From an uncultured Verrucomicrobiae bacterium (GTDB lineage Bacteria > Verrucomicrobiota > Verrucomicrobiia > Chthoniobacterales > UBA10450), in the NCBI GenBank assembly GCA_963726745.1, contig CAVSDR010000006.1:512001-576000 (forward strand): a DNA stretch of 64,000 nt. Direction: 5' to 3'. Under the pieces are notes generated by a model, which did not search any database, was not told where the DNA came from, and saw only the letters and a program-made list of their open reading frames with translations. The position numbers were made by a program, and so were the translations under genes. Of this stretch, positions 7,389 through 60,393 are shown in pieces; position 1 is the first letter of the stretch, and the number at the start of each line of letters is the position of its first letter.

Positions 7389-9133
7389 GAGCGTCCTTTC
7401 CGCGACCGTTTCCCGGGGAGCGCGACCTTCTCAATCGCCGGCGCCGGCTGCCGATTATTCTGCCACAGCTGCAGAATCGTGAACAGGTTCTGGGTCGTGT
7501 AATACAATGCCAGTGCCGCCGCGAAATTGTAGCAAAAAATCAAGAAGATCAGCGGCATGAACATCATCACGCGGCGCTGCATGGCGTCGCCCGTGTTCGG
7601 GGTCATGCGCATGAGCCAGACGTTGGTCGCGCCCATGATCAACGGGAGAATATTGATCGGCCAGCCGAGCCCGGGGAGGTGCGCGATCGTGTCCGGTTGC
7701 GCGAGATCGTGCACCCACAGGAAGGAGGCATTCCGCAATTCCGCGGCCTGCCCGAGCATGGAGAAGAGGCCGAAGAAGATCGGGATCTGGATCAGCATCG
7801 GGAGGCAGCCGCCGACCGGATTGACCCCGTTCTCCTTGTAGAGCTTCATCACCTCCTGGTTCATCCGGGTGGGATCGTCCTTGTACTTTTCCTTAAGCGC
7901 CTGCATCTTCGGCGCGAGCGCGGACATGCGGCGCATCGATTTGTTCGCCTTGTTCTGCAGCGGCCAGAGCACGCCCTTCACGCAGGCGGTGAGGAGGATG
8001 ATCGCGAGCCCGTAGTTCTTGACCCAGCCGTGGAGGAGATTAAGGAAATTCAGCAGCGCCTGGCTGACCAATTTGAAAAAGCCGAAGTTCATGATCTCGG
8101 CCTGGTCGTGCTCGAGTTTAGCCAGCCGATTGTAGAGTTTCGGCCCGGAGTAGATCTCCACCTGCAGACTGCTCGTTTGGCCCGGTTGCAGGGTAAACCC
8201 CGGCAGCCCGAGGGCGCCTTCCATGCCGTAGAGCGGCGCAGCGTTCTCCCGCGGAATCTCGAAGCGCGTGCCCCAGACAGCGCCGCCCTTGGTGTTCAGC
8301 GGCGTGAGGATGGTGGTGAAGAATTGATTGCTCATCGCGCCCCACTCGGCGCCGGTCACCTTCTCCTCGAAGAACGGCTGCGCGGCGCGCTTCTCGATCC
8401 CGACCAGCGGATAGCTTTGCGCGGCAAACCAGTTCACGTCCGTGCTCTTGGCCTTGCCGTCGAGGCACCAAACGAGGCGGGTGTAGGCGGCCATGTCGCG
8501 CGGATGCAAGGGCGTGGTCGCACCGAGCGTGAGGAAGTAATCAGGGCGCGTGTAGGGCTGCGTGCCGTCGTTGCGGAACTCCACCTCGAGCTGGGTGAGG
8601 TAGTTGTCGCGCGGCGCGGGGTTCGAGGGGAAGGAGTAGCGTTTCCGCACCTGGACGTTGCCCGGGAGTGTGCGCTGAAATTGCACGCTGCCATCCGGCT
8701 GTTTCGCGAGCTGGAATTCGCCCAGGTCTGGCGCGGCCGGCTTGTCGACCAGCGCGGCGATCGGCAGGTGATTCGAGGAATTGAGGACCACGTAGCCCGG
8801 TGGGAGATCGGCCTTGTGATTGAGCAGGTGGACTTCGCTGATCGCGCCGCCGCGATTCGTCAGGCGCAGCTCGACGTCGCCGTTGGAAAGGTTCTCGGTC
8901 TGCTCGACGAAGGACTGCGTCGCGGGCGCAGACTCGGCACCGGGCGCGGGAGCCGCAGCGGGCGCGGCCGGGGCGGCTGAAGTGGTCGGCTCAGCCGCCG
9001 CAGAAGCAGCGGGCGACGGCGAAGCGAGCACGGTCTTCGGCACCACCGGCGCCGGATGCTGGACCATGTAAACCTGCCAGCCGATCAGGCCGAGGACGCA
9101 TAGCGTGACGGCAATCCATGCTTGTCGATCCAT
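7385..9133 (-). CDS. yidC: Membrane protein insertase YidC
   Basis: NYGLAIILLT, LYKENGVNPVGGCLPMLIQIPIF, FLWVHDLAQPD. Confidence 0.95.
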   Translation of the reverse strand: MDRQAWIAVTLCVLGLIGWQVYMVQHPAPVVPKTVLASPSPAASAAAEPTTSAAPAAPAAAPAPGAESAPATQSFVEQTENLSNGDVELRLTNRGGAISEVHLLNHKADLPPGYVVLNSSNHLPIAALVDKPAAPDLGEFQLAKQPDGSVQFQRTLPGNVQVRKRYSFPSNPAPRDNYLTQLEVEFRNDGTQPYTRPDYFLTLGATTPLHPRDMAAYTRLVWCLDGKAKSTDVNWFAAQSYPLVGIEKRAAQPFFEEKVTGAEWGAMSNQFFTTILTPLNTKGGAVWGTRFEIPRENAAPLYGMEGALGLPGFTLQPGQTSSLQVEIYSGPKLYNRLAKLEHDQAEIMNFGFFKLVSQALLNFLNLLHGWVKNYGLAIILLTACVKGVLWPLQNKANKSMRRMSALAPKMQALKEKYKDDPTRMNQEVMKLYKENGVNPVGGCLPMLIQIPIFFGLFSMLGQAAELRNASFLWVHDLAQPDTIAHLPGLGWPINILPLIMGATNVWLMRMTPNTGDAMQRRVMMFMPLIFLIFCYNFAAALALYYTTQNLFTILQLWQNNRQPAPAIEKVALPGKRSRKGRS

Positions 9134-9150
9134 ACGCGTCTGATGGCCGC

Positions 9151-9444
9151 CTATTCACAAACCAGGCAGGCGTCCTTACTGGAGGAAAGTTGTGGGCGCT
9201 GCCCGGCGGCGGAGGCTTTCGGCACCGGGTCGTAACCTTGCCCGCCCCACGGCTGGCAACGCCCGAGGCGACGCAAACCGAGCCAGCTCCCGCGAAGCAG
9301 GCCATGCTCCTCAACCGCCCCGAGGAAGTAATGCGAACAGGTCGGCTGGAAGCGGCAACCCGAGCCCGGACCGCCCAAAAACGAGAGCACAGGCGAGATC
9401 GTCCACTGGTAAACGCGGACGAACATGCGGACGAAAAGGAGCAT
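9151..9444 (-). CDS. yidD: Membrane protein insertion efficiency factor YidD
   Basis: YQWTISP...CRFQPTCSHY...RCQPWGGQGYDPVP; ATG overlaps the rnpA TGA (TGATG). Confidence 0.92.
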   Translation of the reverse strand: MLLFVRMFVRVYQWTISPVLSFLGGPGSGCRFQPTCSHYFLGAVEEHGLLRGSWLGLRRLGRCQPWGGQGYDPVPKASAAGQRPQLSSSKDACLVCE

Positions 9445-9812
9445 CAGGGCGCTAGGATAGAAGCGCGCTTTGCGAGGCGCAACCACTCATCTTCCAGCGC
9501 GCGCGAGCTCGCGCGCGCGGCCGCTGGACGGGCGATCAAGACCAGCCAAAACCCGGTGCGCACCCCGTGCTGGTGCCGCCGCACGATCTCGCGCAGGCGC
9601 CGCCGGACCCGGTTCCGCACGACCGCTCCGCCGACGCGTTTACTGGTGACAAAACCGGCGCGGAACGGTGCCAAGGTGTCGGCTAATTCCAGCGTGCCGA
9701 GCACCAGAAAGGCGCCGCGCTGCACCCGCCCTTCCGTGCGCACGCGTGCAAAGTCGGCCGTGCGCTGGAGGCGGCGCTGGCGGGAGAAACGAAGCGGAGC
9801 GGCGGCGGTCAC
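9444..9812 (-). CDS. rnpA: Ribonuclease P protein component
   Basis: SKRVGGAVVRNRVRRRLRE RNR motif; synteny with yidD-yidC-jag. Confidence 0.93.
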   Translation of the reverse strand: MTAAAPLRFSRQRRLQRTADFARVRTEGRVQRGAFLVLGTLELADTLAPFRAGFVTSKRVGGAVVRNRVRRRLREIVRRHQHGVRTGFWLVLIARPAAARASSRALEDEWLRLAKRASILAP

Positions 9813-9842
9813 GGCGAAGGTCGGTGGGCCCGACAGTACAGC

Positions 9843-9877
9843 AAAAGTCTTCCCGCAGACGAGCTGCGGGAAGACTT
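9843..9877 (-). terminator. Probable intrinsic terminator of the lipoprotein gene
   Basis: Perfect 14-bp stem AAGTCTTCCCGCAG/CTGCGGGAAGACTT (9845-9877), 5-nt loop, ending in TTTT on the minus strand. Confidence 0.65.
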
Positions 9878-9904
9878 CGCAAGAGTTCGGTTTAGCCGAC
9901 GAAC

Positions 9905-10201
9905 TTACTGCTGGCCCGGGGTCGCCGTGGCCGTGGTCGTGGTGCTCTCCGTGGTCGTGCTCATCGCCGGAGTCATCGTCGCCGCCGGAGTCATGGCTGC
10001 CGCCGGGGTGCTGGGAGTGACCACGTGGGTGGTGTCCGTATGCGTGTTGCTGTGCGTGCTCGTCGCCGGGGAAGGATTCACGATCGTCGTGTTATGCTCC
10101 GTCTTCGGCTCTGCCGGGGAGGCAGGGGCCACGGTTTCGGTCTTTTGTTCGCAGGCCGCAAAAAGCGCGGCGCTGGCCAGGATGCAGATATATTTCTTCA
10201 T
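9905..10201 (-). CDS. Small Thr/Pro-rich lipoprotein
   Basis: MKK + hydrophobic stretch + lipobox FAAC; low-complexity tail with about 2.5 copies of an 18-bp unit (9965-10010, TPAAxM). Confidence 0.75.
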   Translation of the reverse strand: MKKYICILASAALFAACEQKTETVAPASPAEPKTEHNTTIVNPSPATSTHSNTHTDTTHVVTPSTPAAAMTPAATMTPAMSTTTESTTTTATATPGQQ

Positions 10202-10305
10202 GTTGTAATTAGGTTTCCCGTTGATGGGTAATATTTCAATCGAAGCGTCAAGGCTATTCGGCCTTCCGCGAGCAGTAATTCGACAGCGGCGAAGCTAACG
10301 AGCGC

Positions 10306-11403
10306 TTAAAAAGCGGCCTCGAAGGGCAGCCCGTGCGCTTCGCCCACCGCCTGCAGAGTCAACCGCCCATCGCGCGTGTTGATCCCGCCGAGTAACGTCG
10401 GCTGGCGCTTGACCGCGCCTTCCAATCCCAGATCGGCGAGCAACTCCACGTAGCGCGCGGTGCTGTTGCTCAAGGCCTGGGTCGAGGTGCGCGCGTAGGC
10501 GCCGGGCATGTTCGCCACGCAATAATGCGTCACGCCTTCCTCCACGTAGACCGGATCGGTGTGCGTGGTCGCGCGCGAGGTCTCGGCGCAACCGCCCTGG
10601 TCGATCGCAATATCCACGAAGACGCTGCCGGGCCGCATCATCCGCAGCATCTCACGCGTGACCAGCTTCGGCGCCTTCGCCCCGGGCACGAGGACGGCGC
10701 CGATGAGAAGGTCCGTGGTCGGCAGCATGTCGGCTAAATTGGCTTCGTTCGAGTAAAGCGTGTTCACGTTCGGCATCGTTAAATCAAGGAAACGCATCCG
10801 CTCGCCGTCCACTTCGAGGATGGTCACATGCGCCTTTAAACCGAGCGCCATGCGCGCGGCATTCACCCCGGAGGTGCCGCCGCCGATCACGACCACTTTA
10901 CCAGGCAAGACTCCGGGCACACCGCCGAGAAGCACGCCGCTGCCGCCATTGTGCTTCGCCAAATAATATGCCCCCATGACCACCGACATGCGGCCGGCGA
11001 TTTCGCTCATCGGTTCGAGCAGCGGCAATTTGTTGCCCACCTGGATGGTCTCGTAGGCCACGCCCGTGACGCCGGATTTCAAGAGCGCGTCGGTTAAAGA
11101 CTTGCTCGCCGCGAGGTGGAGGTAGGTGAAGAGAATCTGCCCGCGGCGCAGCAGCGAATACTCTGCCGGCAGCGGTTCCTTGACCTTCACGATCATCTCC
11201 GCCTGGCGAAACACCTCCTCGGCGGTCTCGATGATTTTCGCGCCCACCGCGGTGTAATCCTCGTCCGGAAAACCCGAACCGACGCCCGCGCTCTTCTGCA
11301 CGAGCACGGTGTGACCGCGGCGCGTGAGCGTCGAGGCGGTGGCCGGTACGAGACCGACGCGATGTTCCTGCTCCTTAATTTCCTTCGGGACGCCGATGAT
11401 CAT
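10306..11403 (-). CDS. ald: Alanine dehydrogenase
   Basis: MIIGVPKEIK, LFTYLHLAA, PMSEIAGRMS, DIAIDQGGC, HYCVANMPGA. Confidence 0.95.
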   Translation of the reverse strand: MIIGVPKEIKEQEHRVGLVPATASTLTRRGHTVLVQKSAGVGSGFPDEDYTAVGAKIIETAEEVFRQAEMIVKVKEPLPAEYSLLRRGQILFTYLHLAASKSLTDALLKSGVTGVAYETIQVGNKLPLLEPMSEIAGRMSVVMGAYYLAKHNGGSGVLLGGVPGVLPGKVVVIGGGTSGVNAARMALGLKAHVTILEVDGERMRFLDLTMPNVNTLYSNEANLADMLPTTDLLIGAVLVPGAKAPKLVTREMLRMMRPGSVFVDIAIDQGGCAETSRATTHTDPVYVEEGVTHYCVANMPGAYARTSTQALSNSTARYVELLADLGLEGAVKRQPTLLGGINTRDGRLTLQAVGEAHGLPFEAAF

Positions 11404-11436
11404 GCCGTTCCCTTTCGCCTAAGAATTCGCGCGAAG

Positions 11437-11997
11437 CTAGTTCAAAGAGGGATCGTCCGGCGCGGCGGCGAGCATCTTGTACCAAGGCCCGAGGCCGCGC
11501 ATGATCTCGAACCAGAGCTTCGGCAAGTGCGCCGGGTTGAGCGCCGCGCGCGTCGGCTTTTGCAGGATCCACGCGTTCTGTTTCATCTCCGCCTCGAGCT
11601 GGCCCGCGGTCCAGCCGGCATACCCGACAAAGGCACGCACCGCCGTCGGATCGGTCTCGGCAAAACCGTGCGCCTCGGCCGCGTCGACGTTGTGTTTCAG
11701 GCGCAGCCGCCCCGCATCCTCCCACTCGAAAGCGGCAAACATGAGCTGGTTCTTGCCTACCGGTCCGCCCAGGAACACCGGCACTTCCGCGAGCCCTTCG
11801 GGCGCCTCTTCGCTCACCAGATCGCAAACTTGTTTGTCGAGCGGGCGATTCAAAATGACCCCCATGGCGCCGTCCTGCGGGTCGTGAGCCGAGATGAAAA
11901 GGACCGCGCGGCGGAAATTTGGGTCGAGCATGCTCGGGTGCGCCACGAGCAACGAACCTGTGAAGTTCTGCGGTCCTTCCTCCCTCGGATTGCGCAC
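11437..11997 (-). CDS. YqgE/AlgH family protein
   Basis: LLVAHPSMLDPNF, GVILNRP, GGPV, GYAGWTAGQLEAE, DPSLN C-terminus. Confidence 0.9.
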   Translation of the reverse strand: MRNPREEGPQNFTGSLLVAHPSMLDPNFRRAVLFISAHDPQDGAMGVILNRPLDKQVCDLVSEEAPEGLAEVPVFLGGPVGKNQLMFAAFEWEDAGRLRLKHNVDAAEAHGFAETDPTAVRAFVGYAGWTAGQLEAEMKQNAWILQKPTRAALNPAHLPKLWFEIMRGLGPWYKMLAAAPDDPSLN

Positions 11998-12041
11998 GGA
12001 AAAACTAGAATCCCCCGCCGCCTTTTCTGCAAGGAGGAACC

Positions 12042-13091
12042 TCAGCGCCGCCGCACCTGCGCCTCGGCCACGTCAAAGACCGCACCGTCAATCGCGTTCT
12101 CCTGCCAGTCGAGGCTCGTGGCCGTGACCAGCTTCTGCGAGGCCGCCGGGAGCGCCGCAAGCAGGCGGTTCCGCCGGCCGGCATCGAGCTCGCCGAAAAT
12201 GTCGTCTATTAAAAGCAATGGCGGCGCCCCTTCCTCCGCCGCGAAAACCTGCGCCTGCGCCAGCTTCAGCGCGAGGGCCAGCGTCCGTTGCTGCCCCTCG
12301 GAAGCGAATTTCTCTGCCGCCAGACCGTTCACCTCCAGCCGGAGATCGTCGCGGTGCGGCCCCACCACTGTCTGCCGCAGCCGCGCTTCCTGCCCCTGCG
12401 TGCGCGCCAGGTCGGCCGCAAAATCCTCCGCGTTCCCCGGCGCAAAAGTCAGCTGCAACGTCTCCTGCTCCGCGCTGATCCCGGCATGTGCCACCGCGGC
12501 GCCCGGCGCCAGACTGCTCGTTAGGCGCGCGCGCATCCGCGAGAGTTTGTCCCCCTGCTCGAGCAGCGGCAAATCGTAAGCCGCGAGCTCGCGCGGGCGC
12601 GGCGTGGCCGATTTAAGCAGCGCATTGCGCGCCCGCAACGCTCGCTCGTAAGCGCGCAAAGTCGTTCGGTAGCCGGGCTCAATCTGTGTCCCGAGGAAAT
12701 CGAGAAAACGCCGCCGGCCCTCGGCGCCGCCGCGGATCAACTCGATATCGGTATTAGCCAGCGAGACGACCCGCGCGAGCCGCAAGTATTCCCCCGTGCT
12801 CGCCTGCTCCGCTTCGTCGAAGCGCAGCTTCCGGCGCAGCGTGCGGTAGGCAAACTCGAGCGCGTGCCCCTGCCACCGGCCGGCCACCGCGAAGCCCTTG
12901 TGCCCCAGCCTCACCAGTGGCGCGAGCGTTGCGCTCCGCTGCGATTGCAACCGCAAAAGGACGCAAGCCGCTTCCAGGATCGACGTTTTCCCCTGCCCGT
13001 TCCGCCCGATGAAGAAGTTAAAACCGGCCTCGCAGTCGACCCGCAGCGCTTCAAAGCAGCGGAAGTGGCGGAGCTTCAGTTCGGTCAGCAT
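12042..13091 (-). CDS. recF: DNA replication/repair protein RecF
   Basis: GRNGQGKTSILEA Walker A, GPHRDDL, SEGQQR signature, LLIDDIFGELD Walker B. Confidence 0.95.
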   Translation of the reverse strand: MLTELKLRHFRCFEALRVDCEAGFNFFIGRNGQGKTSILEAACVLLRLQSQRSATLAPLVRLGHKGFAVAGRWQGHALEFAYRTLRRKLRFDEAEQASTGEYLRLARVVSLANTDIELIRGGAEGRRRFLDFLGTQIEPGYRTTLRAYERALRARNALLKSATPRPRELAAYDLPLLEQGDKLSRMRARLTSSLAPGAAVAHAGISAEQETLQLTFAPGNAEDFAADLARTQGQEARLRQTVVGPHRDDLRLEVNGLAAEKFASEGQQRTLALALKLAQAQVFAAEEGAPPLLLIDDIFGELDAGRRNRLLAALPAASQKLVTATSLDWQENAIDGAVFDVAEAQVRRR

Positions 13092-13305
13092 ACAGGCAGT
13101 CGTTAGGGCAGTTTATCGCACGGGCGGAAAGATTTATCTTTCTTTCTCATTCTGCGTGCACTCGGCAAAAGTTTGATGCAAAATCATGAAATAGGTTGCG
13201 AGCGCGCAGAACTTCGCGTACTTCGTCCGCAGTTTTGGAAGATTGTTCTGGGGGGAACAGCCGCCCTTCATGTCCTTTGGACGTGGGGGGCGGTACTTTT
13301 TTGCC

Positions 13306-13989
13306 ATGAAACAGCCATCGCCGCCGCGCCGTCGCTTCTCCTGGGCACTCGCGTTCACGCTCGTCTTTCTCTTCGTGGCGGTGCTCCTCGCCTGGCTCTT
13401 TTGGCGCGTGGAAACCTGGCCGATGCGCTTCTTCGGCCAAACGAGTGTTGAACTCGAGCGAGTTGCGAATCACGTCGCCACCACTTTCGCCGGGCTGGCG
13501 CAATTGCAGCCGCGAGTCACGATCAACAACCGCGTTTACCTCGAGCAAACCAGCGCCGTGGCCGAGCTCGCGCTGGTTGCGCGCAAAGTCGAGGTCGAGC
13601 GCGAGTTTGAGCACACTTGGGCCGGGAGCACCAAGCGGGTGAAATTACACGGCACTTTCAACGTCAAGGCGGGCTTCGACTTGCGCGAGCCGGTCTCGGT
13701 CGATGTGCGCGAGAAGGCGATCGCCGTCCAGATGCCGCCGGCTAAACTTCTCGGGCTCGAGCAGGAGAACGTGGAGGTCCGCACGATGGAGAACGGCCTC
13801 TGGAATCGCGTCTCCGCCGCCGATCTCGAGGGCGAACTCAAACAGCTCCCGCGGCTGGCGCGCGAGAAAGCCGAGGCCGCCGGCCTAACGAGCGAAGCGG
13901 AGGCCAGCCTCCGCCGGCAATTGCAGGAACGTCTCGGCAGCGAGCGCCCGCTTGAGCTGACCTTTCAGGCGGCCACGCGGAAAGATTAG
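13306..13989 (+). CDS. Membrane-anchored DUF4230-like protein
   Basis: Single N-terminal TM helix; VKAGFDL...IAVQMPPAKLL pattern. Confidence 0.7.
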   Translation: MKQPSPPRRRFSWALAFTLVFLFVAVLLAWLFWRVETWPMRFFGQTSVELERVANHVATTFAGLAQLQPRVTINNRVYLEQTSAVAELALVARKVEVEREFEHTWAGSTKRVKLHGTFNVKAGFDLREPVSVDVREKAIAVQMPPAKLLGLEQENVEVRTMENGLWNRVSAADLEGELKQLPRLAREKAEAAGLTSEAEASLRRQLQERLGSERPLELTFQAATRKD

Positions 13990-13998
13990 CCAGCAACT

Positions 13999-16900
13999 TC
14001 AAGCCGCGAGCCACCGCGCCAGGCGCTGGCGCAATTCCATCGTCGCCTGCACCCGCAACTCCGCGCCCGCTTGCAGCCTAACGACTGCTCCATCGGCCCG
14101 CTCGAAGAGCAGCTGGACCGCGGTCGACCCGGGCGAGCCGGCCAGGATATCGCGCACGCTTTGCAGATCCGCCGGCGTGGCCGCGGGCGTGAAGCGCAGG
14201 ATCAACGGGGCCGGGCGCGACCCGGATTTGCTCGGGCGCGGGAGGTTGCTCGCTGTCCGGTTTCAGCGGCCGCGCTTTTTGCGCAGTCGCGCGCATGCTT
14301 TCGTCGCGCTTGTCGAGCGTCCCCTGGATCGCGATCACTTTTCCTGGGACCAGCTGCTCCGCGACCTTCACGTAGACTTCGTTCCAGATCACCACTTCCA
14401 GGTTGCCGGTTAAATCCTCCAGCCAGACGACCGCGAACGGTTTCCCCTCGCGCTTGGTGAATTTTTTGTCGACCTGCGCGAGCGCGCCAGCGACGCGAAA
14501 GGTCGCGCGGTCCTCCATTTCCCCTAACGAGGAGATGGTGTGATAGCCACCTGCGGCAATCGTCCGCGCGTAGGCATCGAGCGGATGGCCGGTGACGTAA
14601 AAGCCGAGCAGCTCCTTCTCGAACGACATCATCTCGTGCTGCGACCAGGGCGGAATCGGGACCGAGGTCGCCTTCGAGACCGGCGTCGGCAAATCATCAA
14701 ACAGCGAGACCTGCCCGCTGGCCCGGTCCTTATGCGAGGAGGACGCCGCCGCGAGCGACTCCTCGATGCAGGCGAAAAGCTCCGCGCGCTCGCGCCCGAC
14801 GAAGTCAAAGGCGCCGGCCTTGACCAGGCTCTCGAGCATTTTGCGATTCGCCACGCGCGCATCGAGTCGCCGGCAAAAATCCTCCAGCGAAGAAAACGCG
14901 CCTCCGCGATTCCGTTCGCCGATGGCCGATTCCATCGCCCCTTCGCCGACGTTCTTGATCGCGGCCAGTCCGAAACGGATCGCCATCTGGTCGGCTGATT
15001 TCTCCGGGATGAACTTGAGCGCGGAGCGGTTCACATCCGGCGGCAAAATCGGGATGCCCATGCGTTTGCACTCGCCCACGAAGATCGAAATTTTCTCGGT
15101 GTTGTTGATCTCGTTCGAGAGCAGCCCGGCCATGAACTCGACCGGGTAGTTCGCCTTCAGGTAGGCCGTCTGATAGCTGATCAACCCGTAAGCCGCGCTG
15201 TGGCTTTTGTTGAAGCCGTAGCCGGCAAACTTCTCCAGCAAATCGAAGATCGCGTTGGCTTTTTTCTCCGGGATTTTGTTCGTGGTCGCGCAGCCTTCGA
15301 TGAAGTTGACCCGCTCCTGGGCCATCTTCTCGCGGTCCTTTTTGCCCATCGCCCGCCGGAGCAAATCGGCGCCGCCTAACGAGTAGCCAGCGAGCTTGCT
15401 GGCCGCGGCCATGACCTGTTCCTGGTAGATCATCACGCCGTAGGTCTCGGCGCAGACTTCCTCGAGCAGCGGGTGCTCATACTTGATCTTGGTCAGCCCT
15501 TTCTTGCGCTTGATGTAATCCGGGATGAGCTCCATCGGGCCCGGCCGGTAGAGCGCGATCAAGGCGATGATGTCCTCGATCTTCTGGACATCGAAATTCT
15601 TGCAGAGGCTGGTCATGCCGCCGGATTCCAACTGGAAGACGCCGACGGTCTCGCCGCGGTTTAGGAGCGCGAAGGTCGCCTGGTCGTCGAAAGGGATTTT
15701 CGCGATCGCGAATTCCGGCTCGCGCTGGCGGATCAAGGTCATCGCGTCCTCGATCACGGTCAGCGTCTTCAGCCCCAGGAAGTCCATCTTGAGCAAGCCG
15801 AGCTCGCCCAGCGGGCCCATGTTGTACTGGCTCACGACTTCGTTGTCCTTGCTCCGGGTGAGCGGGATGTAGTCCGAGAGGTTGCGGTCGCTGATGACCA
15901 CGCCGGCCGCGTGCACCCCGGCGCCGCGCGAAAGGCCCTCGAGCACGGTCGCGTAATCCCAGAGCTGGCGGACCGAGGGCTCGCTCTCGATCGCTCGCTT
16001 CAGATCGGGCGTTTTCTCCGCGGCACTAGCCAGCGAGATGTTGAGCTCGTTCGGGATCATCTTCGCGATCCGGTCGGCCTCGCCATAGCTCAAGCCGATC
16101 ACGCGCCCGACATCGCGGACCACGCTCTTCGCGCCCAGCGTTCCGAAAGTCACGATCTGCGCGACCGCGCGCTCGCCGTATTTCCGGCGCACGTATTCGA
16201 TCACCTCGCCGCGGCGCGTCTGGCAAAAATCGACGTCGATATCGGGCGGCGAAACGCGCTCCGGATTGAGGAAGCGCTCGAACAGGAGATTGAACTGCAA
16301 CGGGTCGACATCGGTGATCCCGAGCACGTAGGCGACCATCGAGCCGGCGGCCGAACCACGCCCTGGACCCACCGGGATGCCGCGCTGTTTCGCGTAGTGG
16401 ATGAAATCCCAGACGATCAGGAAGTAGCTCACGAACCCGGTCCGCTCGAGCACATCGAGCTCGTAATCGAGCCGCGTGATCAGCTCGGTGCCGACGCGTT
16501 CGCCGTAGCGTTGATGCAGGCCTTGGTAGCAAAGCTCGCGCAAGTAGGCCTCGCGCGATTTCCCCTCCGGCACCGGGTATTCGGGATACTTCGACTTGCC
16601 GAACTCGAGCTCGAGATTGCAGCGTTCCGCGATCTCGAGCGTGTTCGTGATCGCCTCCGGGTGCTCGGGAAAGAGCGCCCGCATCTCGTCGGCTGATTTG
16701 AAATAAAGTTCCGGGGTGTAACGCATCCGGCGCTCGTCGTGCACCATTTTCCCGGTGCCGATGCAGATCATGACATCGTGCGCGTCGTGATGGCTCCGTT
16801 CGAGGAAATGCACGTCGTTCGCCGCGACCAACCCGAAGCCAAATTCCTTTGCCAGCGTCGGGAGCACGCGGTTGCACTTTGCCTGCGCCTCGATCCCGTG

Positions 16901-17437: not shown

Positions 17438-17445
17438 CGGGCGTC

Positions 17446-17555: not shown

Positions 17556-17924
<369 letters not shown>

Positions 17925-51624: not shown

Positions 51625-51674
51625 GGGCGGAAAAGAAACTAGATGAGCGTGAAAGAGAAACTGGAATCTGCCTC

Positions 51675-52307: not shown

Positions 52308-52346
52308 AACTGCGCGGTCCCGCAGCGGAGCCACCGCGGAGAGGTT

Positions 52347-52434
52347 TGGCGGAGGGGGTGGGATTCGAACCCACGAGGGCTTGCGCCCTGCCGGTTTTCA
52401 AGACCGGAGCCATCAACCACTCGACCACCCCTCC
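52347..52434 (-). tRNA. tRNA-Ser (anticodon TGA), CCA encoded
   Basis: GGAGGGG acceptor, CCGGT-CTTGAAA-ACCGG anticodon arm, long variable arm GGGCGCAAGCCC, GGTTCGAATCC, ends GCCA. Confidence 0.96.
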
Positions 52435-52488
52435 AGCGCGGCTAGAGTCTGGCATCCGCGATTCAATCAGCAAGTCCTTGCCGCTCCC

Positions 52489-53277
52489 ATGAAGTTCGCC
52501 GTGGCCCAGATCTCCTGTGTGGTCGGCGAGGTGGCCGCGAACGTGGCCAAGTTTGCCGCGCTCGCGGCGCAAGCCAAAGCCGCCGGCGCGGAGTGGCTCC
52601 TTCTCCCGGAAATGGCCGACACGGGTTACGTCATGCGGGTTATCCGGGAACGCGCCCAACCCTGGACCAGCGGCGCGGTCCCGGAGCTGCAACGGCTCGC
52701 GCGCGAGCACTCGTTAGGCATCGTCGCCGGCGTTTCCGAGCGGACCGCGGAGGCAATCTATAACACCCAGGTGGCGATCGATCCGCAGGGCGAAATCCGG
52801 GGCCGCTACCGGAAGACCCATCTCTTCGCGCCACCGCCGATCGAGGAGCAGCGCTGCTTTGCCCCGGGCGGGGAACTGGTCGCGCTCGACGCCGGGCCGT
52901 TTCGCTTCGGCCTCGGGATTTGCTACGACCTGCGCTTCCCGGAATTCCATCGCACCCTCGCCTGCGTGCACGGGGCCAATGTGCTGCTTGTTTCCTCGGC
53001 CTGGCCGTTCCCGCGGGTGGAACATCTGCGCACGCTCGCGACCGCGCGCGCGATCGAAAATCAATCCTACGTCTTGCTGTCTAATCGCGTGGGCACAGAC
53101 GACGGCGTGACCTTTTGCGGCAGCTCCGCGATCATCGATCCCGCGGGCACACTCGTGGCCGCGGCTTCGCCCGAGCGCGAGGAGCTGCTCGTGGCCACGC
53201 TTTCCGCGGAACGAAGTGCGCAGGTGCGCGCGGCCATGCCCGTCTTCGAGCATCGCCGGCCAGAGCTCTACCGCTAG
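52489..53277 (+). CDS. Carbon-nitrogen hydrolase (nitrilase/omega-amidase family)
   Basis: LPEM, YRKTHLF, ICYDLRFPE (E-K-C triad), ARAIENQ. Confidence 0.9.
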   Translation: MKFAVAQISCVVGEVAANVAKFAALAAQAKAAGAEWLLLPEMADTGYVMRVIRERAQPWTSGAVPELQRLAREHSLGIVAGVSERTAEAIYNTQVAIDPQGEIRGRYRKTHLFAPPPIEEQRCFAPGGELVALDAGPFRFGLGICYDLRFPEFHRTLACVHGANVLLVSSAWPFPRVEHLRTLATARAIENQSYVLLSNRVGTDDGVTFCGSSAIIDPAGTLVAAASPEREELLVATLSAERSAQVRAAMPVFEHRRPELYR

Positions 53278-53286
53278 CGGCCTGGG

Positions 53287-53433
53287 CTAGTAGCGCGTGC
53301 CGCGGGTGTGCCCGGTCGGGTCGTAGCCCGAATGCTGGGCCGCCATTTGCGACTCGGTGTAATGACCGCCATCGGCGCATCCGCCCAAGCCCAGCGCCAG
53401 CCCGACCAACAGAAGCAACGCGAAGAATTTCAT
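53287..53433 (-). CDS. Small lipoprotein, 48 aa
   Basis: MKFFALLLLVGLALGLGGC lipobox. Confidence 0.65.
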   Translation of the reverse strand: MKFFALLLLVGLALGLGGCADGGHYTESQMAAQHSGYDPTGHTRGTRY

Positions 53434-53485
53434 CCCGCCACTTTCTCGCGCCGCCTCCGTTTGTCCAACGGCGGAAAGGCCCGCG

Positions 53486-53917
53486 CTATTCGAAGAGGTC
53501 GCCCGGCAAATGATATTTCTCCTGCCAGACCTGAATCTCGGTGTCGGTCCCACCGAAGCGCCAGTGCACTACTTCCCACTCGCCTCCGCGCCGGCGCAGG
53601 AGCGCCTCGCCGCCGGCGTCGAACATTCCTTCGCGCTGCGCCTCGGCATACCGGGTTTTGCTGTAATCGATCTTGCTGCCATCGGGACGTTGCGGTTCCA
53701 CCCGGGCAAAGGCCCACGAGCCGGAGACGCGCAGCTGTCCGACGACAAAAGCGACCGGCTGGCCTAGATCTTTTTCCGCGGGGATGCGGAGCGCATCCAT
53801 GATCTCCTTCCGTTCGGCGCTGCCGGGTGGCGGCGTGCGCGTCTCGCCGGCAAAAACTCCCATCGTGCCCGCGCCGAGTAGCGCCAACAGCAGACCAAAC
53901 TTTTTCGTTATGCTCAT
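53486..53917 (-). CDS. Secreted hypothetical protein
   Basis: Signal peptide; TPPPGSAERKEIMDALR...LRVSGSWAF; ATG overlaps the upstream TGA. Confidence 0.75.
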   Translation of the reverse strand: MSITKKFGLLLALLGAGTMGVFAGETRTPPPGSAERKEIMDALRIPAEKDLGQPVAFVVGQLRVSGSWAFARVEPQRPDGSKIDYSKTRYAEAQREGMFDAGGEALLRRRGGEWEVVHWRFGGTDTEIQVWQEKYHLPGDLFE

Positions 53918-55167
53918 TCTTCCTTTAAGTAAGCGATCGGCATGATGCCGTCTTTCCGGGCTTCGTCGAGATCGATGATCTGAAACTCCGGGCTGTCCTC
54001 CTCCTCGAACTTGGCGGCGTTAGCCTGCAAATTGGCCGTGCCCGCGACGACCGCGGCGGCAAAGGTTTTCCAGGAATCGCTCGCGGCGATTTTCGGGCCG
54101 AGCTTCTTCTCGAGGTTGCGCAAGCCTTCGGGTAATTGCGCGGCGCTCTTCTCCGGCTTCGAGCCGAGGAGCGTGGTCTCGAGCGCGATTCGATCCTCCC
54201 CTTCCCCGTCGAGGTAAAAGCCCATGAACATGTGGCCTGGGACGATCACGAGAAAGGGCCGCATCCCGAGCTTCCGCAGAAGCGAGGCAAAAAGCACGCT
54301 GCCATCCACGCAATTCGCCTGCTCGTTGGCGACCGATTCGTCGACAAAACGCACATGCTGGCTCAGGACCGTCTCGGACGTCCCCGCGGTGGTGGTGATG
54401 TTGCTGTATTTGATCCCGCGTTTTTGCAGCGCCGTCCAAAGCGCCAGCACTTCGCGCACGACATCCTCCTGCCCGCCTTGATAGCCGGCGAAATGATCGA
54501 CCACTCCGGTGCGCAGCCCTTCCTTAAGCACCTGCTCGACGATTGGGCCGTTCTCGTTCACGTAGGCGGCGAACATCCAGCCCATGTCGGTATAGCCGGC
54601 ATCTTCTCCGCTCGGCGGCTCCTCCGAGGCTTTCCCCAGGCTCCCAGCGGCCGGCTCGTCGCGGATCGACTGCTCCTTGTCGGCCACGCCGAAGGGACAA
54701 TCATTGATCGTCCGCAAAGTCACCGTCTGCGTCTGTTCGCCCACGATTTTGCCAGCTACTTCCAAGCGAAAAGTCACGTTCAATGGGACCTGCTGGCGCA
54801 CCCGGCGGAGGGCGTCGAACTTGTAGTTAATCGTCGGCGCGACCCAGTATTCCACCTCCGCCTGGTCGAGCACACCGGACCAGCTGCTCTGGTTCATCAC
54901 GCTGTTTTCCAGCAGCGTCACCTTCACCGCCGTTTTCGGCGCGGGCGAGGTGATGGAAATGCCGACCGCGCCGTAGGCGTCGCCGAGAACTTCGGGATCG
55001 TTCTCCTCATCCGCCCCGGGCCGCACGGTCGCGGTTGCCAGCAGGAGCGAAGGAAAAAGCTGCGAATCCATGTTCGCATCGGGGTGCCACGAAAGCTCCG
55101 CGGCCGGCAGGGAAAGCGCGCTTGCGACCCAAGCGCAGGCAAGCAGGAAGGAGAGGTTTGGCTTCAT
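53914..55167 (-). CDS. Secreted transglutaminase-like (papain-fold) protein
   Basis: Signal peptide; ANCVDGSVLFASLL, PGHMFMG, ALETT (putative C-H-E triad). Confidence 0.7.
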   Translation of the reverse strand: MKPNLSFLLACAWVASALSLPAAELSWHPDANMDSQLFPSLLLATATVRPGADEENDPEVLGDAYGAVGISITSPAPKTAVKVTLLENSVMNQSSWSGVLDQAEVEYWVAPTINYKFDALRRVRQQVPLNVTFRLEVAGKIVGEQTQTVTLRTINDCPFGVADKEQSIRDEPAAGSLGKASEEPPSGEDAGYTDMGWMFAAYVNENGPIVEQVLKEGLRTGVVDHFAGYQGGQEDVVREVLALWTALQKRGIKYSNITTTAGTSETVLSQHVRFVDESVANEQANCVDGSVLFASLLRKLGMRPFLVIVPGHMFMGFYLDGEGEDRIALETTLLGSKPEKSAAQLPEGLRNLEKKLGPKIAASDSWKTFAAAVVAGTANLQANAAKFEEEDSPEFQIIDLDEARKDGIMPIAYLKEE

Positions 55168-55326
55168 CGGAAAGTCGGGAAGCATTCAGCAATCCGCGCA
55201 CCGGCGCGACCCGGAAATTTTCGATGCTCTCGTCCAGCGAGGACAAGGAATTCGCTTTCGGAAAAAGGTCACGTCCACGCGCGCGGCGAAAACGAATTGC
55301 TGCGGAAACATCATCGTTCCCCTCCC

Positions 55327-58161
55327 GTGAATCCAGCCGAATCCACCATTTCGCCGCCTTCGCTCGAGGAGAGTTTGCAGGAGAGCGAGGAACGCCTGCG
55401 CGCGGCATTTAGTCAATCCGTCACCGGGATGGTGATCACCGATCTGCATGGCGTGATCCAGCGGGCAAATGACGCCTTTTGCCGCATCGTTGACCGCCCG
55501 CGGGAAGAGTTGCTCGGGCGCACCTCGGATCACATGACCCCGCCGGACGACCAGAAAAATAACGTCACCGCCATCCGGGAATTGCGCGACGGACTGGTCA
55601 AGAGCGCCATCTTCCACAAGCGCTACCTCCGTCCCTCCGGCGAGGAAGTCTGCACGCGGATCAATCTCTCGCTCGTCCGCAACGCCGCCGGCACGCCGGT
55701 CAATCTCATGGCCACGGTCGAGGATGTGACCGCGCAGCGCCGCGTCCAGGCTGCCCTGGAAGAACGCGAGGAACGCCTGCGCCTCATCTTCGACAGCATC
55801 ACCGACTACGCCATCATCACGATCGATCCCGCCGGGGCGGTGATCGATTGGAATCCTGGAGCGCAGGAAATTTTCGGCTATCGCGCCGAGGAAATCATCG
55901 GGCAGCCATGGGAGGTGCTGTGGACATCGGAAGATCGCGCTGCGAAAGAGCCGGCCAAAGTCCAGACCGCGGCCTTGGCCTCGGGCCGCGCGCATAACGA
56001 GCGCTGGCACCTGCGGAAAGATGGCGGGCGCTTTTTTGCCAGCGGGATGCTGCGCCCGATTCGCACGAGCAATGGAGAGCTCCGCGGCTTTACCAAGATC
56101 TGTCGCGACGTGACGGCGCAACGCCAGGCCGAGAGCGAACTCGCGCAGGCGCGTCTGCAGGCCGAGCGCGCGCTCGAGGAGGAGCGCGCGCGCCTCGCGG
56201 AAGTTTTCCAGCATTCGCCCTCCTTCCTCGCGATTTCACGCGGGCCGGAGCACGTCTTCGAATTTGCGAACGAGCGGTATCTCGAGATCAGCGGACATCG
56301 CGACATCCTCCAGAAAACTGCGCGCGAAGCCTTCCCGGAGATCCAAGGCCAGGGCTTTTTCGAAATCCTCGATCGGGTCTACCAGACGGGCGAACCCTTC
56401 GAAGGCAAGGAGATGAGCGTCTACCTGCAACGGCAACCAGGGCAGCCGCCGGAGGAATGCTTCATCGACCTGGTTTACATGCCGATGCGCGATGCCACCG
56501 GCGCGGTCACCGGCATTTTCACTCACGGGATCGACATCACCGCGCGCAAGCTGGCCGAGGAGTCGCTCGAGCAACAGGCGCGCACCTTCGATGTCCTCCT
56601 GTCGTCCATCCAGGATTACGTCTTCCTTTTCGATCGCGAGGGCCGCTTCACCTACGCGAATAAAATGCTGCTCGATCTGTGGGGCGTCCCGGCCTCGCGC
56701 CTGCCCTTGTCGATGCTCGAGGATCTGCACTACGACCCCGAGCTCGAGCAATTTCTCATGAGCGATCTGCGCGCGGTCTTCCAGACGGCGCGACCGGTCA
56801 TGCGGGAAGTCCCTTACGTGAGCCCCACCGGCATCTCCGGGCACTACGAGTATATCCTCGCACCGGTGCTCAGCCCGGCCGGCGAAGTGCTGAGCGTCGC
56901 CGGCACCAGCCGCAACATCTCCGAGCGCAAGCGCGTGGAGCTGGAGCGCGAGCAGCTCCTCGCGAGCGAACGCGCCGCCCGCACTGAGGCCGAGCGCGCG
57001 AGCCAGATGAAGGACGATTTCCTCGCCACCCTCAGCCATGAGCTTCGCACGCCGCTCAACGCCATCCTGGGCTGGGCCAATCTCCTCGGGGCCGATGCCA
57101 ACCCGGCCGATGTGCGCGAAGGCGTGCAGGTGATCGAGCGGAACGCCCGCGCCCAGGCGCGCATCATTGACGACCTCCTCGACATGAGCCGGATCATGTC
57201 GGGTAAGATCCGCCTCGACGTGCAGCGCACCGATCTCGCGGCGGTCATTGAGTCCGCCCTCGAGACCGTGCGACCGGCGGCGCTCGCGAAAAAAATTCGC
57301 CTCCAGAGCATCCTCGATCCGCTGGCCCAGCCGGTCACTGGCGACCCGAGCCGGCTGCAGCAGGTCTTTTGGAATTTACTCAGCAACGCGGTCAAATTCA
57401 CCCCCGCCGGTGGGCGCGTGCAGGTGCTGCTCGAGCGGGTGAACTCCCACCTCGAAGTCAGCGTGGTCGACACCGGGGAAGGAATCTCCGCGCAATTCCT
57501 CCCGCATGTGTTCGATCGCTTCCGCCAGGCCGATGGCTCGACCACCCGCGCACACGGCGGCCTTGGCCTGGGCCTCGCGATTGTGAAGCAGCTCGTGGAA
57601 CTCCATGGCGGCAGCGTTTCCGTGCGCAGCGGCGGGCGCGACTGCGGCTCCACCTTTACCGTTTCGCTCCCGCTCGGCGCGGTGCGGCCGGAAGACCACG
57701 GCCCGCCCGAGCGCCGGCACCCACGCTCACCCGATGTCGTCCCGGTCGAGGCCGTGGCCGGGATCGATTTAGCCGGCATCATCGTCCTGATCGTGGACGA
57801 TGAAGCGGACGCCCGCTCCGTGGTCGCCCGCAGCCTGGAGAACGCCGGTGCCACCGTCCACGCGGCCCCGTCCGCGGCCGAGGCGCTGGCTCTTTTGGAG
57901 CGGGAACGGCCGCATGTCTTGATCAGCGACATCGGGATGCCGGGCGAAGATGGCTATGCCCTTATCCGAAGCGTCCGCTCGTTAGGCGCGGAACAGGGCG
58001 GCCACGTCCCCGCGATCGCGCTCACCGCTTATGCCCGCACCGAGGATCGGATGAAAGCCATCCTGGCCGGCTTCCAGATGCACGTGGCCAAGCCGGTCGA
58101 GATCGCGGAACTCCTCGCGATGGTCGCGAGCCTCGCGGGTCGCACCGGCCCCACGAGCTAG
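55327..58161 (+). CDS. Hybrid multi-PAS sensor histidine kinase / response regulator
   Basis: Four PAS/PAC segments, LSHELRTPLNAI, NLLSNAVKFT, DTGEG, GGLGLGL, receiver VDD...SDIGMP...KP; no TM segments. Confidence 0.92.
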   Translation: MNPAESTISPPSLEESLQESEERLRAAFSQSVTGMVITDLHGVIQRANDAFCRIVDRPREELLGRTSDHMTPPDDQKNNVTAIRELRDGLVKSAIFHKRYLRPSGEEVCTRINLSLVRNAAGTPVNLMATVEDVTAQRRVQAALEEREERLRLIFDSITDYAIITIDPAGAVIDWNPGAQEIFGYRAEEIIGQPWEVLWTSEDRAAKEPAKVQTAALASGRAHNERWHLRKDGGRFFASGMLRPIRTSNGELRGFTKICRDVTAQRQAESELAQARLQAERALEEERARLAEVFQHSPSFLAISRGPEHVFEFANERYLEISGHRDILQKTAREAFPEIQGQGFFEILDRVYQTGEPFEGKEMSVYLQRQPGQPPEECFIDLVYMPMRDATGAVTGIFTHGIDITARKLAEESLEQQARTFDVLLSSIQDYVFLFDREGRFTYANKMLLDLWGVPASRLPLSMLEDLHYDPELEQFLMSDLRAVFQTARPVMREVPYVSPTGISGHYEYILAPVLSPAGEVLSVAGTSRNISERKRVELEREQLLASERAARTEAERASQMKDDFLATLSHELRTPLNAILGWANLLGADANPADVREGVQVIERNARAQARIIDDLLDMSRIMSGKIRLDVQRTDLAAVIESALETVRPAALAKKIRLQSILDPLAQPVTGDPSRLQQVFWNLLSNAVKFTPAGGRVQVLLERVNSHLEVSVVDTGEGISAQFLPHVFDRFRQADGSTTRAHGGLGLGLAIVKQLVELHGGSVSVRSGGRDCGSTFTVSLPLGAVRPEDHGPPERRHPRSPDVVPVEAVAGIDLAGIIVLIVDDEADARSVVARSLENAGATVHAAPSAAEALALLERERPHVLISDIGMPGEDGYALIRSVRSLGAEQGGHVPAIALTAYARTEDRMKAILAGFQMHVAKPVEIAELLAMVASLAGRTGPTS

Positions 58162-58215
58162 CGCGCGCTTCCACCTTTCTCCGCCCAAGCGCCCATTCCC
58201 GGCGTATAGTGAGAG

Positions 58216-58491
58216 ATGAACTCTGCGCCTCCTGCCTATTCCCCGCCTGTGGTTACCGAAGCGGTCGCCTATCGGCGCGCCCACGCCGGCAAGCTCATGG
58301 TCATCCAGCGCGCCGAGGGGCGGGACCTGGTCGCAGCCGACTTTTTCCAGTTCGACTCCGTCGGCACTCACCCGACTGGCCTCTTCGTGACCGGCCTCTT
58401 CGGCGATGCGAAACTCCGGCACATGCTCTCCTCCACCGTGCGGCCCGCCTCCAACGACGAGATCGCCTGGCATAGCCAACAGGCTGGCTAA
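58216..58491 (+). CDS. Hypothetical protein, possibly leaderless
   Basis: 91-aa ORF filling the gap; TATAGT at 58205-58210, 5 nt before the ATG. Confidence 0.55.
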   Translation: MNSAPPAYSPPVVTEAVAYRRAHAGKLMVIQRAEGRDLVAADFFQFDSVGTHPTGLFVTGLFGDAKLRHMLSSTVRPASNDEIAWHSQQAG

Positions 58492-58503
58492 ATTTTAGCC
58501 AGC
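58483..58503. repeat. Perfect inverted pair of the WTTAGCCRGC motif
   Basis: GCTGGCTAAA-T-TTTAGCCAGC, overlapping the stop codon of 58216..58491. Confidence 0.85.
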
Positions 58504-58561
58504 GACTTCAGCCGCAAGCTGCCCGCGGCGTTTGGTCGTGGGAAGCTGGGGTCCGCTCCGC

Positions 58562-58951
58562 ATGCCCTGTCCCGACCCTGCCATCTGCCCGCTCTGCGGC
58601 GCGCCTAACGAGTGCCGGCTCGCCGCCGACCCGGGCGCAGCGATTGCCACCTGCTGGTGCGCCCGCGAAGATTTTCCCCCGTCGCTCCTGGAGCGCGCGG
58701 GGCAAAAAGAGTCGGCCGGCTGCATTTGTCGCCGCTGTCTCGTCCAAGCGCGTTTCGCGGAAGCGCGCACGCGCCCCGCGCCGCCGCTGCAGGCGGGCGA
58801 TGCCTACCTCGAGGGCGGCTTGCTTGTCTTCACGGCACAAGGTCACCGGCGTCGCGGCTATTGCTGCGGGAGCGGCTGCCGGCATTGCCCCTTCGATGCG
58901 CTGGAGCGCTCGGTCGCGGGCGCTCCGCCGCGACGCCCGGCTTCTCGCTAA
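58562..58951 (+). CDS. Cysteine-rich CWC-family domain fused to DUF5522-like domain
   Basis: CPLCGAPNEC...CWC...CICRRC, then YLEGGLLVFT...RRGYCCGSGCRHCPF. Confidence 0.8.
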   Translation: MPCPDPAICPLCGAPNECRLAADPGAAIATCWCAREDFPPSLLERAGQKESAGCICRRCLVQARFAEARTRPAPPLQAGDAYLEGGLLVFTAQGHRRRGYCCGSGCRHCPFDALERSVAGAPPRRPASR

Positions 58952-60393
58952 AGCGGATACGGCAAGGTCGCTCCGAGCACGGTCACCAGCACGAGAACCA
59001 CCGGCACGAGCACGAGGAAAACGATGAAGGTGTAGCCCATGACATCGCGCGCCCGCAATCCAAAGAGCCCCAGGATTGGCAGCATCCAGAAGGGCTGGAT
59101 TAAATTAGCCAGCGCCTCGCCCAGATCATAAGCCGCCACCACCCAGCCGAGGTGGACTTTTAATTCATGCGCCGCCGCCATCACATACGGCGCTTCCACG
59201 ACCCACTTCGAGCCGCCGGAAGGCACAAAGACTCCCAGCACCGCCGAGTAGGTGGCCACGATCGCCGGGAACGTTTTCGCATTCGAGACGCCGACAAAAG
59301 CGTGCGCAATCTGCTGGCTAAGATGCGTGGAGGTGATCACGCCTGCGATCCCGGCGTAGAACGGAAACTGCAGGATCACACCCCAGACCGCCGGCGTAGC
59401 CGCTTGCACCGCATGCATCAGCCGCGCCGGCGTGCGGTGCAGGAGGAAGCCTAACAAGAGGAAGGTGAGGTTCACGATGTTAAGCGTGATCGCGCTCAAA
59501 GGTTCGCCCGCCTGGAGGAAATAGCGCACGAGATAAGTCGCTCCCAGGAGCACGATCAGCCAGTTCAGAATCGGCGAATGCTCCAGCCACTGGCCCGGCG
59601 TCGGTCGCGCCACCGGCGCCGGCGGTTCCAGCTCCGACTTCCGGAGATCGATCCCAAGATCGCGCGCAGTTTTGCCGCTTCCGGCAGGCGGAGTAACCAG
59701 CCACATGACCGCGGTCACAAGCGCGATTTCCACCACTACTGAGGCCAGGCTTTGCCAGAGAAAAATCGTGTGCTGGAAGGAAATGATCCCGCCGGGAACG
59801 ATCCCGCCCTGGGCCACGATCTCGCGGATCTGCGGTTGCAGCGCACCCGGCGTGGCCATCTGCAGCGCGGCCGAGCCGCTCAAGCCTTGCGCCCAGATGC
59901 TCCCCAGCCCGAGGAAGCTGGCCGCGGCCAGCGCGCGGTAGTCGACCCCTTCCACCCGTCGCGCGATCTCCCGCGCCAGCACCGCGCTGAAGATTAAACT
60001 AAAGCCCCAGTTGAACCACGAGCTTGCCATGGCGAAAAACGCCACCAGCGCGACCGCCCCGCGCGGCGTCGCCGGCCAGGAAGCAAGCGCGCGGATCACC
60101 CGACCGACTGGCGCCGAGGTCGCGAGCACGTGGCCGGTGATAATAACCAGCGACATCTGGAGCGTGAAGGGAATCAATTCCCACAAGCCTTTCCCCCAGG
60201 CGTCCACCACCTCGGGGAAAGTCGAAGGCGTCAACGCAACTCCCGCCACCACCACGATGACCGTCGCCAGGAGCGCAAAGATGAATGCATCTGGCACCCA
60301 GCGCTCGGTCCACGCGGTCATCGCCAGGGCCAGGCGCGCGAGGAGGCCCAGCGGGTTCGCGGGGCTTTTCTCTGCGCCGGCCACGGAGCTCAT
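58948..60393 (-). CDS. atoE: Short-chain fatty acid transporter (AtoE family)
   Basis: ERWVPDAFIFA, QMSLVIITGH, NWG, QFPFYAGI, FVPSGGSKW, NLIQPFW. Confidence 0.88.
   Translation of the reverse strand: MSSVAGAEKSPANPLGLLARLALAMTAWTERWVPDAFIFALLATVIVVVAGVALTPSTFPEVVDAWGKGLWELIPFTLQMSLVIITGHVLATSAPVGRVIRALASWPATPRGAVALVAFFAMASSWFNWGFSLIFSAVLAREIARRVEGVDYRALAAASFLGLGSIWAQGLSGSAALQMATPGALQPQIREIVAQGGIVPGGIISFQHTIFLWQSLASVVVEIALVTAVMWLVTPPAGSGKTARDLGIDLRKSELEPPAPVARPTPGQWLEHSPILNWLIVLLGATYLVRYFLQAGEPLSAITLNIVNLTFLLLGFLLHRTPARLMHAVQAATPAVWGVILQFPFYAGIAGVITSTHLSQQIAHAFVGVSNAKTFPAIVATYSAVLGVFVPSGGSKWVVEAPYVMAAAHELKVHLGWVVAAYDLGEALANLIQPFWMLPILGLFGLRARDVMGYTFIVFLVLVPVVLVLVTVLGATLPYPL

Follow-up and report, generated by a model that had tools for sequence, protein, structure and literature searches.

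The decamer WTTAGCCRGC is strongly over-represented in a Chthoniobacterales genome (G000; 3.41 Mb in seven contigs, C1 to C7, in an error-prone assembly that is 94.7% complete) and in the window analysed here, a 64-kb stretch at C6:512,001-576,000. It is the core of a word of about 18 bp, RAWWTAGcCRRCRRnWTS, called motif B, which coexists with another abundant word, motif A (TCGTTAGGC). Among named organisms, the nearest DnaE relatives of G000 belong to the Chthoniobacterales, Verrucomicrobiota (80-83%). By analogy with known systems, motif B is probably a tag of the DNA-uptake type, the second in this genome and specific to its lineage, that spread through biased acquisition of DNA, a reading that we hold with slightly better than even confidence. 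The first-pass annotation of the window had suggested either a second uptake dialect or a polar replication signal. The statistics fit the former, which is preferred, and its resemblance to uptake tags is by analogy.

As a tag, motif B would be read by a putative protein. Compared with word-free DNA, pieces bearing the word would more often get into the cell and be recombined into its chromosome, and point mutations towards the word would spread wherever the encoded protein tolerates them, a molecular drive on the branch of this lineage. The biased step would most likely be sequence-selective uptake by the type IV pilus tip, as for DNA uptake sequences (DUS) and uptake signal sequences (USS), and B would have joined the older, family-wide motif A as a second specificity. 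We infer all three elements: the protein reader, the drive, and a bias that acts at uptake. The published route to such words is molecular drive through biased acquisition (PMC1939737 and PMC3458573), and B fits it.

Anatomy, range and age of motif B

Motif B is a long and graded word. A mixture model over all 26,137 TAG-centred windows of the genome resolves two words, A (WSSACTCGTTAGGC; ~2,300 sites, 17 bits) and B (~2,700 sites, 19 bits including the fixed TAG). A second estimate, by expectation-maximisation on a 4th-order background with TAG left free, gives ~5,100 B sites, in which both C's of CRRC, and the S at the end, hardly vary. Motif B is non-palindromic and present equally on both strands, at one site per 0.7-1.3 kb, and its spacing is Poisson (coefficient of variation 0.96; 18 gaps of at least 10 kb, 19.9 expected). 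About 23 pairs of sites across the genome form back-to-back dyads with one common A/T flank. Motifs A and B have just TTAGnC in common (5-6 positions), A extending to the left and B to the right, and no mutual pairing of the two was found at any fixed distance.

Codon usage does not account for the word. Our own gene caller gave 3,105 genes, 2,532 of which were used after short or low-scoring calls were dropped, and the null consisted of 10 synonymous shuffles per gene. The decamer occurs in genes 245 times in sense and 237 times in antisense, compared with 12.6 and 6.8 under the null (482 vs 19.4, ~25-fold), and the 15-base pattern 826 times compared with 12.2 (68-fold). The enrichment thus persists under a codon-aware null, the check that the first-pass annotation had proposed. 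The flanks (WTS downstream, an A/T run upstream) are identical in intergenic sites and in five reading frames, and T stands at +12 in 91% of 180 intergenic B sites. Because they are kept in intergenic sites and in every usable frame, the flanks are not codon effects, and a codon or peptide artefact is excluded by the synonymous null and by these frame-independent flanks. Motif B is kept at the DNA level, in several frames and at permissive codons. Its core holds 148 of the 353 ATA codons (42%) and 747 of the 2,622 TTA codons, and a further 580 TTA codons lie inside A.

Motif B is strong in just one other sampled genome, G055, which belongs to a different genus, and is weak in two congeners. 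The word WWTAGNCRRCRNNWT has 1,167 copies in G000 (reversed control 16), 189 in G055 (20), 78 in G015 (20) and 77 in G011 (21); the remaining 247 of 251 family genomes have counts close to the control. A related B pattern, with 1,429 copies in G000 and 528 in G055, is at background in the remaining 299 of 301 order genomes (highest exception G097, 48 vs 22) and in the other 25 of the 26 genomes of G055's genus. Statements on G055 rest on an unpublished genome. Its word in samples is TTAGCCRRCRCGATC, many copies of which have CGT to their left, as in A (CGTTAGCC, 9 vs 1.1 expected), and G055 has no excess of motif A (31, control 36). Samples of G011 carry both words. The motif A decamer has 51-1,749 copies in all 34 genus genomes, the lowest near background, and is enriched in much of the family as well. 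A further word around CACCGGCAC is enriched in G015 (GTGCCGGT, 28 vs 5.3 expected in 111 kb; L012-L018) and is possibly another dialect.

Codon alignments indicate that A is old and B young. At 72-78% amino-acid identity, and with some genes recurring between pairs, 45 of 87 A sites and 0 of 64 B sites are found at the same position in three A-rich congeners. Only 1 of 15 B sites is common to G000 and G055, though G055 has 12 in those genes. At B sites the congeners have ordinary codons, often synonymous. It follows that point changes produced B in this lineage and, in a separate process, in G055. Amino-acid identity is 62% at B sites and 72% in their flanks, which matches the permissive-site pattern of uptake sequences as given in PMC2817400, where such sequences are located at residues of low conservation and are absent from genes that lack homologues. 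Two other histories were considered. Descent of B from decayed or converted A is rejected in G000, since congeners have ordinary coding DNA at the B positions. Decay of A as a relic is unsupported, as single mismatches in G-T-T-A-G number 0-3 each against 199 perfect long copies, although neutral decay of A could lag behind a fast drive on B.

With low GC as a proxy for acquisition, both words are depleted in new DNA, B less so than A. In the lowest-GC 3% of 5-kb bins there are 6 A and 22 B sites, or 0.06 and 0.22 per kb (p = 0.007; p = 0.039 for the lowest 10%), and in the upper three GC quarters the densities are 0.34-0.55 and 0.40-0.50 per kb. Low-GC bins stand at ~15% of the genome rate for A and ~50% for B. 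Gaps in A of at least 11 kb number 13, compared with 2.9 expected. The stronger low-GC depletion of A and its long gaps suggest that B fills new DNA faster than A, but in genes for secreted proteins A and B do not differ (p = 0.67). A 12.8-kb strain duplicate, with few sites, keeps 4 of 4 A sites, and its two copies have 2 B sites in common, of 3 and 2. The duplicate (C1:1-12,776 and C6:1,022-1,035 kb, 97% identity) is probably a second strain haplotype in the bin. Among public reads, the best run holds 0.14 of the words and yields just short or distant pieces.

Competence genes, known systems and other explanations

The genome encodes many components associated with DNA uptake by pili. It has ComEC, ComF, secretins, DprA adjoining ssb, two PilT-like ATPases, PilC-, PilM- and PilN-like genes, and 19 prepilin matches. 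Two paralogous cassettes, each with two pilins and a DUF7305 protein, lie at C6:623,578-626,133 (adjoining dprA) and C3:584,422-586,936. They recall the ComZ/PilA2 tip receptor of Thermus in their pilin-pilin-large pilin order and in the position of one of them beside dprA and ssb; ComZ is described as a DNA-binding tip pilin receptor (PMC6561018). An AlphaFold model of the dprA-side DUF7305 protein (predicted local distance difference test score 78) has a pilin domain and a beta-solenoid, and its best Foldseek match is ComZ (PDB 6qvi; E-value 1.8e-6, TM-score 0.28). In VIA-align ComZ ranks fifth, with the longest aligned range (Z 14.3, root-mean-square deviation 10.3, 320 residues). Sequence identity to ComZ is 11-13%, and no PDB sequence matches the DUF7305 protein. 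The cassettes differ from genome to genome, and pilin cassettes lie within two of the ten longest gaps free of A. Several ComZ-like or Verru_Chthon-like pilus-tip cassette families, in up to ~5 copies per genome, are swapped between genomes at fixed loci (L093:7579-10134, L094:6423-8937, L085:4970-9731, L181, L169).

No reader of B emerged from these comparisons. Among the pilins of G000 and those of G055, G011, G044 and G150 (incomplete in the last two), none tracks the word, and a survey of paralogues gave no candidate. The DUF7305 cassette has its closest relatives in G015, G018 and G002 and was not found in G055 or G011. A prs-linked ComZ-like family was not found in G000, and its quick-method tree follows neither word. 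For the large protein (C3:1,029,969-1,032,461) of a further ComZ-like cassette at C3:1,029,969-1,034,730, the closest relative is in B-poor G074.

Motif B shares many statistical traits with established uptake words. The Pasteurellaceae USS is described as a AAGTGCGGT core with T-rich flanks (PMC3458573). Like it, B is non-palindromic, occurs in thousands of copies on both strands, has a core with A/T-rich flanks, is mostly genic at permissive sites, and is scarce in foreign DNA. Unlike it, B has an unrelated sequence in another phylum, and G000 has two strong words. The likeness is one of statistics. Like the DUS dialects of Neisseriaceae, A and B are lineage-specific variants around a common short core, here TTAGnC, with a stop codon in one frame. 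Simonsiella muelleri likewise has two co-occurring forms and overlapping dyads (PMC3630211).

Several observations weigh against selective uptake. ComEA, searched for with TIGR00426, has no match in G000. The ComEA-like protein of the family is a secreted SNase-fold domain fused to HhH (L153, L154, L161), and its gene is in two pieces in G000 (C4:17,248-17,874, with a remnant at C2:230,142-230,279). The G055 copy of the gene is frameshifted as well, whereas many B-poor relatives have it at full length. The break in G000 could be an assembly error, because glnA and addA are frameshifted in the same assembly; the split across contigs with altered neighbours nevertheless looks like a rearrangement. 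No pilin or ComZ-like cassette tracks B among 19 pilins and three cassette types, and no ComP-like reader, the receptor type of DUS, turned up among the compared pilins. Ice-binding proteins outscore ComZ on the solenoid part of the model (Z 16.6-18.7), and ComZ itself is reported to bind DNA without sequence preference (PMC6561018). Inverted terminator pairs, which PMC3630211 attributes to all DUS genomes, are not in excess for B (19 and 26, 17.6 expected each) or for A (2 and 0, 3.9 expected). The two dialects of S. muelleri differ by one base in the same source, and A and B are far more different than such known pairs. Motif B is not filed as a member of DUS or USS because terminator pairs are missing and both its reader and its uptake are putative.

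The same drive could also have its biased step inside the cell, an explanation that is possible though unlikely. A sequence-specific factor acting at the word would protect or recombine broken DNA or DNA arriving by any route, either as a non-polar Chi-like signal for AddAB or through a site-specific nuclease or loader. This covers every statistic that the drive covers and does not need ComEA. Site-specific ssDNA nucleases that touch transformation are described in PMC11893778, and an AddAB-like pair is present at C3:775,699-781,719, named from a PD-(D/E)XK match and helicase motifs, with AddA in several frames. However, AddA-like PD-(D/E)XK matches occur in B-rich as well as B-poor genomes (4 of 5) and do not track B. 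The Chi sites of known systems measure 5-8 nt and are leading-strand biased, unlike the unbiased 18 bp of B, and no hairpin is found in the B consensus.

Slightly less likely again is a binding site for an abundant chromosome-organising protein, with each site under weak direct selection. The graded 18-bp profile resembles a protein footprint, B sites cover the whole genome, and some form back-to-back dyads. However, the spacing is random, not even, and B lacks the domain-specific placement of matS, SBS and parS. A basic chromosome function is also hard to reconcile with the fact that B is strong in just two genomes among 251 of the family and two among 301 of the order, and with its gain at the price of rare codons.

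Build-up like that of the cyanobacterial HIP1, through an orphan methyltransferase and repair, is improbable. HIP1 is tied to methyltransferases and is presented as an exact 8-bp palindrome holding methylase sites (PMC4390886). Like it, B is hyper-abundant, lies inside genes and is kept at the DNA level, and G000 has a conserved orphan N4/N6 methyltransferase at C3:981,251-982,042. However, this enzyme is single-copy and 66-77% identical in B-rich and B-poor genomes alike. The word is asymmetric and graded over 18 bp, and its near-fixed positions, two C's and the last base, are unlike a methyltransferase site. GTAC (observed/expected 0.16) and CTAG (0.28) are strongly avoided throughout G000, and the orphan methyltransferase, present in all five genomes checked, may target one of them.

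Marginally more improbable still is an origin as a pac-like packaging signal, whether of a phage or of a gene-transfer agent, or as scars left by a mobile element or by integron attC sites. A mobile reader would agree with the patchy distribution of B among genera, and motif A ends in GTTAGGC, which we take to resemble attC cores. However, the PF03237 terminase, the single family searched, was not found in any of five genomes. Unlike attC, neither A nor B has inverted core pairs, just two XerC/D-like recombinases are present in G000, and the aligned codons show that B sites come about through substitutions rather than insertions.

Strand balance and the sites in the window

The first-pass annotation had counted 18 plus and 4 minus copies of the decamer in the window. 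Its 22 sites are correct in every coordinate and strand, but one plus copy at 4496 was overlooked, and the window holds 23 matches (19+/4-; 0.30 expected, maximum 2 across 100 shuffles). The plus excess occurs in genes of both orientations (8+/2- each), and the 18:13 strand ratio of motif A is also as it described. The five WTTAGCCGAC variants are at the positions that it gave, two on plus and three on minus. The sites are as follows, with cores being matches to the decamer.

245..63459 (span), motif A (CTCGTTAGG), n=31 (18+/13-), family-wide and older than B, with which it coexists
4000..62280 (span), TAG-anchored motif B sites of the full form, n=52 (34+/18-)
4496..4505, +, motif B core, the overlooked copy
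8117..8126, +, motif B core, antisense within yidC
9678..9687, -, motif B, GAC variant
9891..9900, +, WTTAGCCGAC match that the mixture model does not call B
10729..10738, -, motif B, GAC variant, within alanine dehydrogenase
12753..12762, +, motif B core, antisense within recF
13737..13746, -, motif B core
13985..13994, +, motif B core, its TAG being the stop codon of open reading frame 13306-13989
22912..22921, +, motif B, GAC variant
26822..26831, +, motif B core
27336..27345, +, motif B core
29201..29210, +, motif B core
32579..32588, +, motif B core
35452..35461, +, motif B core
36553..36562, +, motif B core
36775..36784, +, motif B core
38534..38543, +, motif B core
38761..38770, +, motif B core
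40210..40219, -, motif B, GAC variant
42863..42872, -, motif B core
43523..43532, +, motif B core
44008..44017, -, motif B core
47678..47687, +, motif B core
51863..51872, +, motif B core
57768..57777, +, motif B core
58483-58492 (-) and 58494-58503 (+), back-to-back motif B cores with one AT-rich flank in common, at the end of open reading frame 58249-58491
59104..59113, +, motif B core

The strand bias does not extend to the genome. Seven segments were oriented by GC skew and GGGNAGGG, the FtsK-orienting polar sequence (KOPS), with C1 and C3 beyond 1.0 Mb excluded and C5 uncertain. The decamer is 350+/341- genome-wide and 306 leading/333 lagging in the oriented segments (p = 0.30). The 15-base pattern is 549/538 and the model-based B sites are 2,414/2,449. 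For motif A the ratio is 479/419 (p = 0.049), and for its 7-mer 982/933. In the same segments GGGNAGGG is 249/65, a control that is partly circular, as GGGNAGGG also oriented the segments; its polarity persists inside every segment (85/21 on C6), and GGGCAGGG is polar even in head-on genes (56/6). Neighbouring decamers lie on one strand in 342 of 684 pairs, and the strand ratio of B shows no inversion at the skew switch near C2:300 kb.

The plus excess in the window is a local fluctuation, which we attribute to chance and to the selection of this window. It is the most skewed of 50 non-overlapping 64-kb tiles (binomial p = 0.0026, ~0.13 corrected for 50 tiles), and the four adjoining tiles have plus/minus counts of 6/8, 7/7, 8/10 and 5/4. 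The 15-base pattern is 17+/12- within the window, and the model-based B sites, contrary to balance, still tilt to plus (64+/36-). Heterogeneity among tiles is borderline for the decamer (p = 0.047), with p = 0.84 and 0.83 for two wider patterns. The leading strand of the window is minus (KOPS 0+/7-), and thus the plus excess sat on the lagging strand.

Orientation with replication, as the first-pass annotation had proposed, is not borne out. Like KOPS and Chi, B is over-represented and asymmetric. Unlike them, it is unpolarised and twice as long, and the true KOPS of G000 is separate. The likeness to E. coli Chi is incidental, since the word is 18 bp and GCTGGTGG tracks gene orientation, not replication. 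The check for RecBCD/AddAB and FtsK found FtsK (C3:196,667-199,132) and the AddAB-like pair, but no match to RecC or RecD in G000. A polar Chi/KOPS-type signal, which those genes and the window's 19+/4- in genes of both orientations would favour, can be discounted almost entirely, given the balanced counts, the lack of a shared strand among neighbouring sites and the polar GGGNAGGG that the genome already has. From the strong polarity of GGGNAGGG, E. coli-type KOPS appears to be functional in this Chthoniobacterales. A switch of both GC skew and KOPS is seen near C2:287-304 kb, which is terminus-like, and another near C3:980-991 kb, and a dnaA-like gene lies at C5:181 kb. No dif-like arm was found near the skew switch.

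Several further features of the genome stand out. In the window glnA extends over two frames (18008-19433), and 751-2826 and 26115-27620, like addA, also look frameshifted, probably through assembly errors. The ergothioneine genes egtB and egtD stand beside an osmolyte ABC transporter (23102-25392), and a stand-alone LigD polymerase domain is found at 61889-62821. The 209 copies of CAACGCCAA in G000 belong to 6-base periodic repeats, a peptide-level tandem repeat with no relation to A or B.

Meaning for the Chthoniobacterales

The novelty lies in a second word, young and largely unrelated, that stands next to an old one still intact, and in its separate rise in a second genus. To our knowledge, sequence-selective uptake is described in two proteobacterial families only. 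A 2025 survey of 177 genomes is still confined to two families (10.1101/2025.10.24.684340). The literature covered contains no account of A or B, nor any of uptake sequences from the order Chthoniobacterales; supplements, which could list other coexisting words, were outside its scope (e.g. Table S1 of PMC3630211).

A broader and rather doubtful proposal is that soil Chthoniobacterales run a modular code for the uptake of self DNA. Exchangeable pilus-tip cassettes would set the word, and a reader of B would have reached two genera separately. G000 would then carry two largely unrelated signals, the old one intact and the new one filling in, and the 22 B against 6 A sites in low-GC islands (p = 0.007) are offered as a sign that B is still doing so.

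Irrespective of its reader, B has changed the codon use of one branch. How an uptake code can be gained or switched is shown by a genome that carries an old tag and a new one, and B-rich and B-poor relatives are a natural contrast set for finding the reader. The tags might also be a means of making abundant, uncultured soil Verrucomicrobia transformable.

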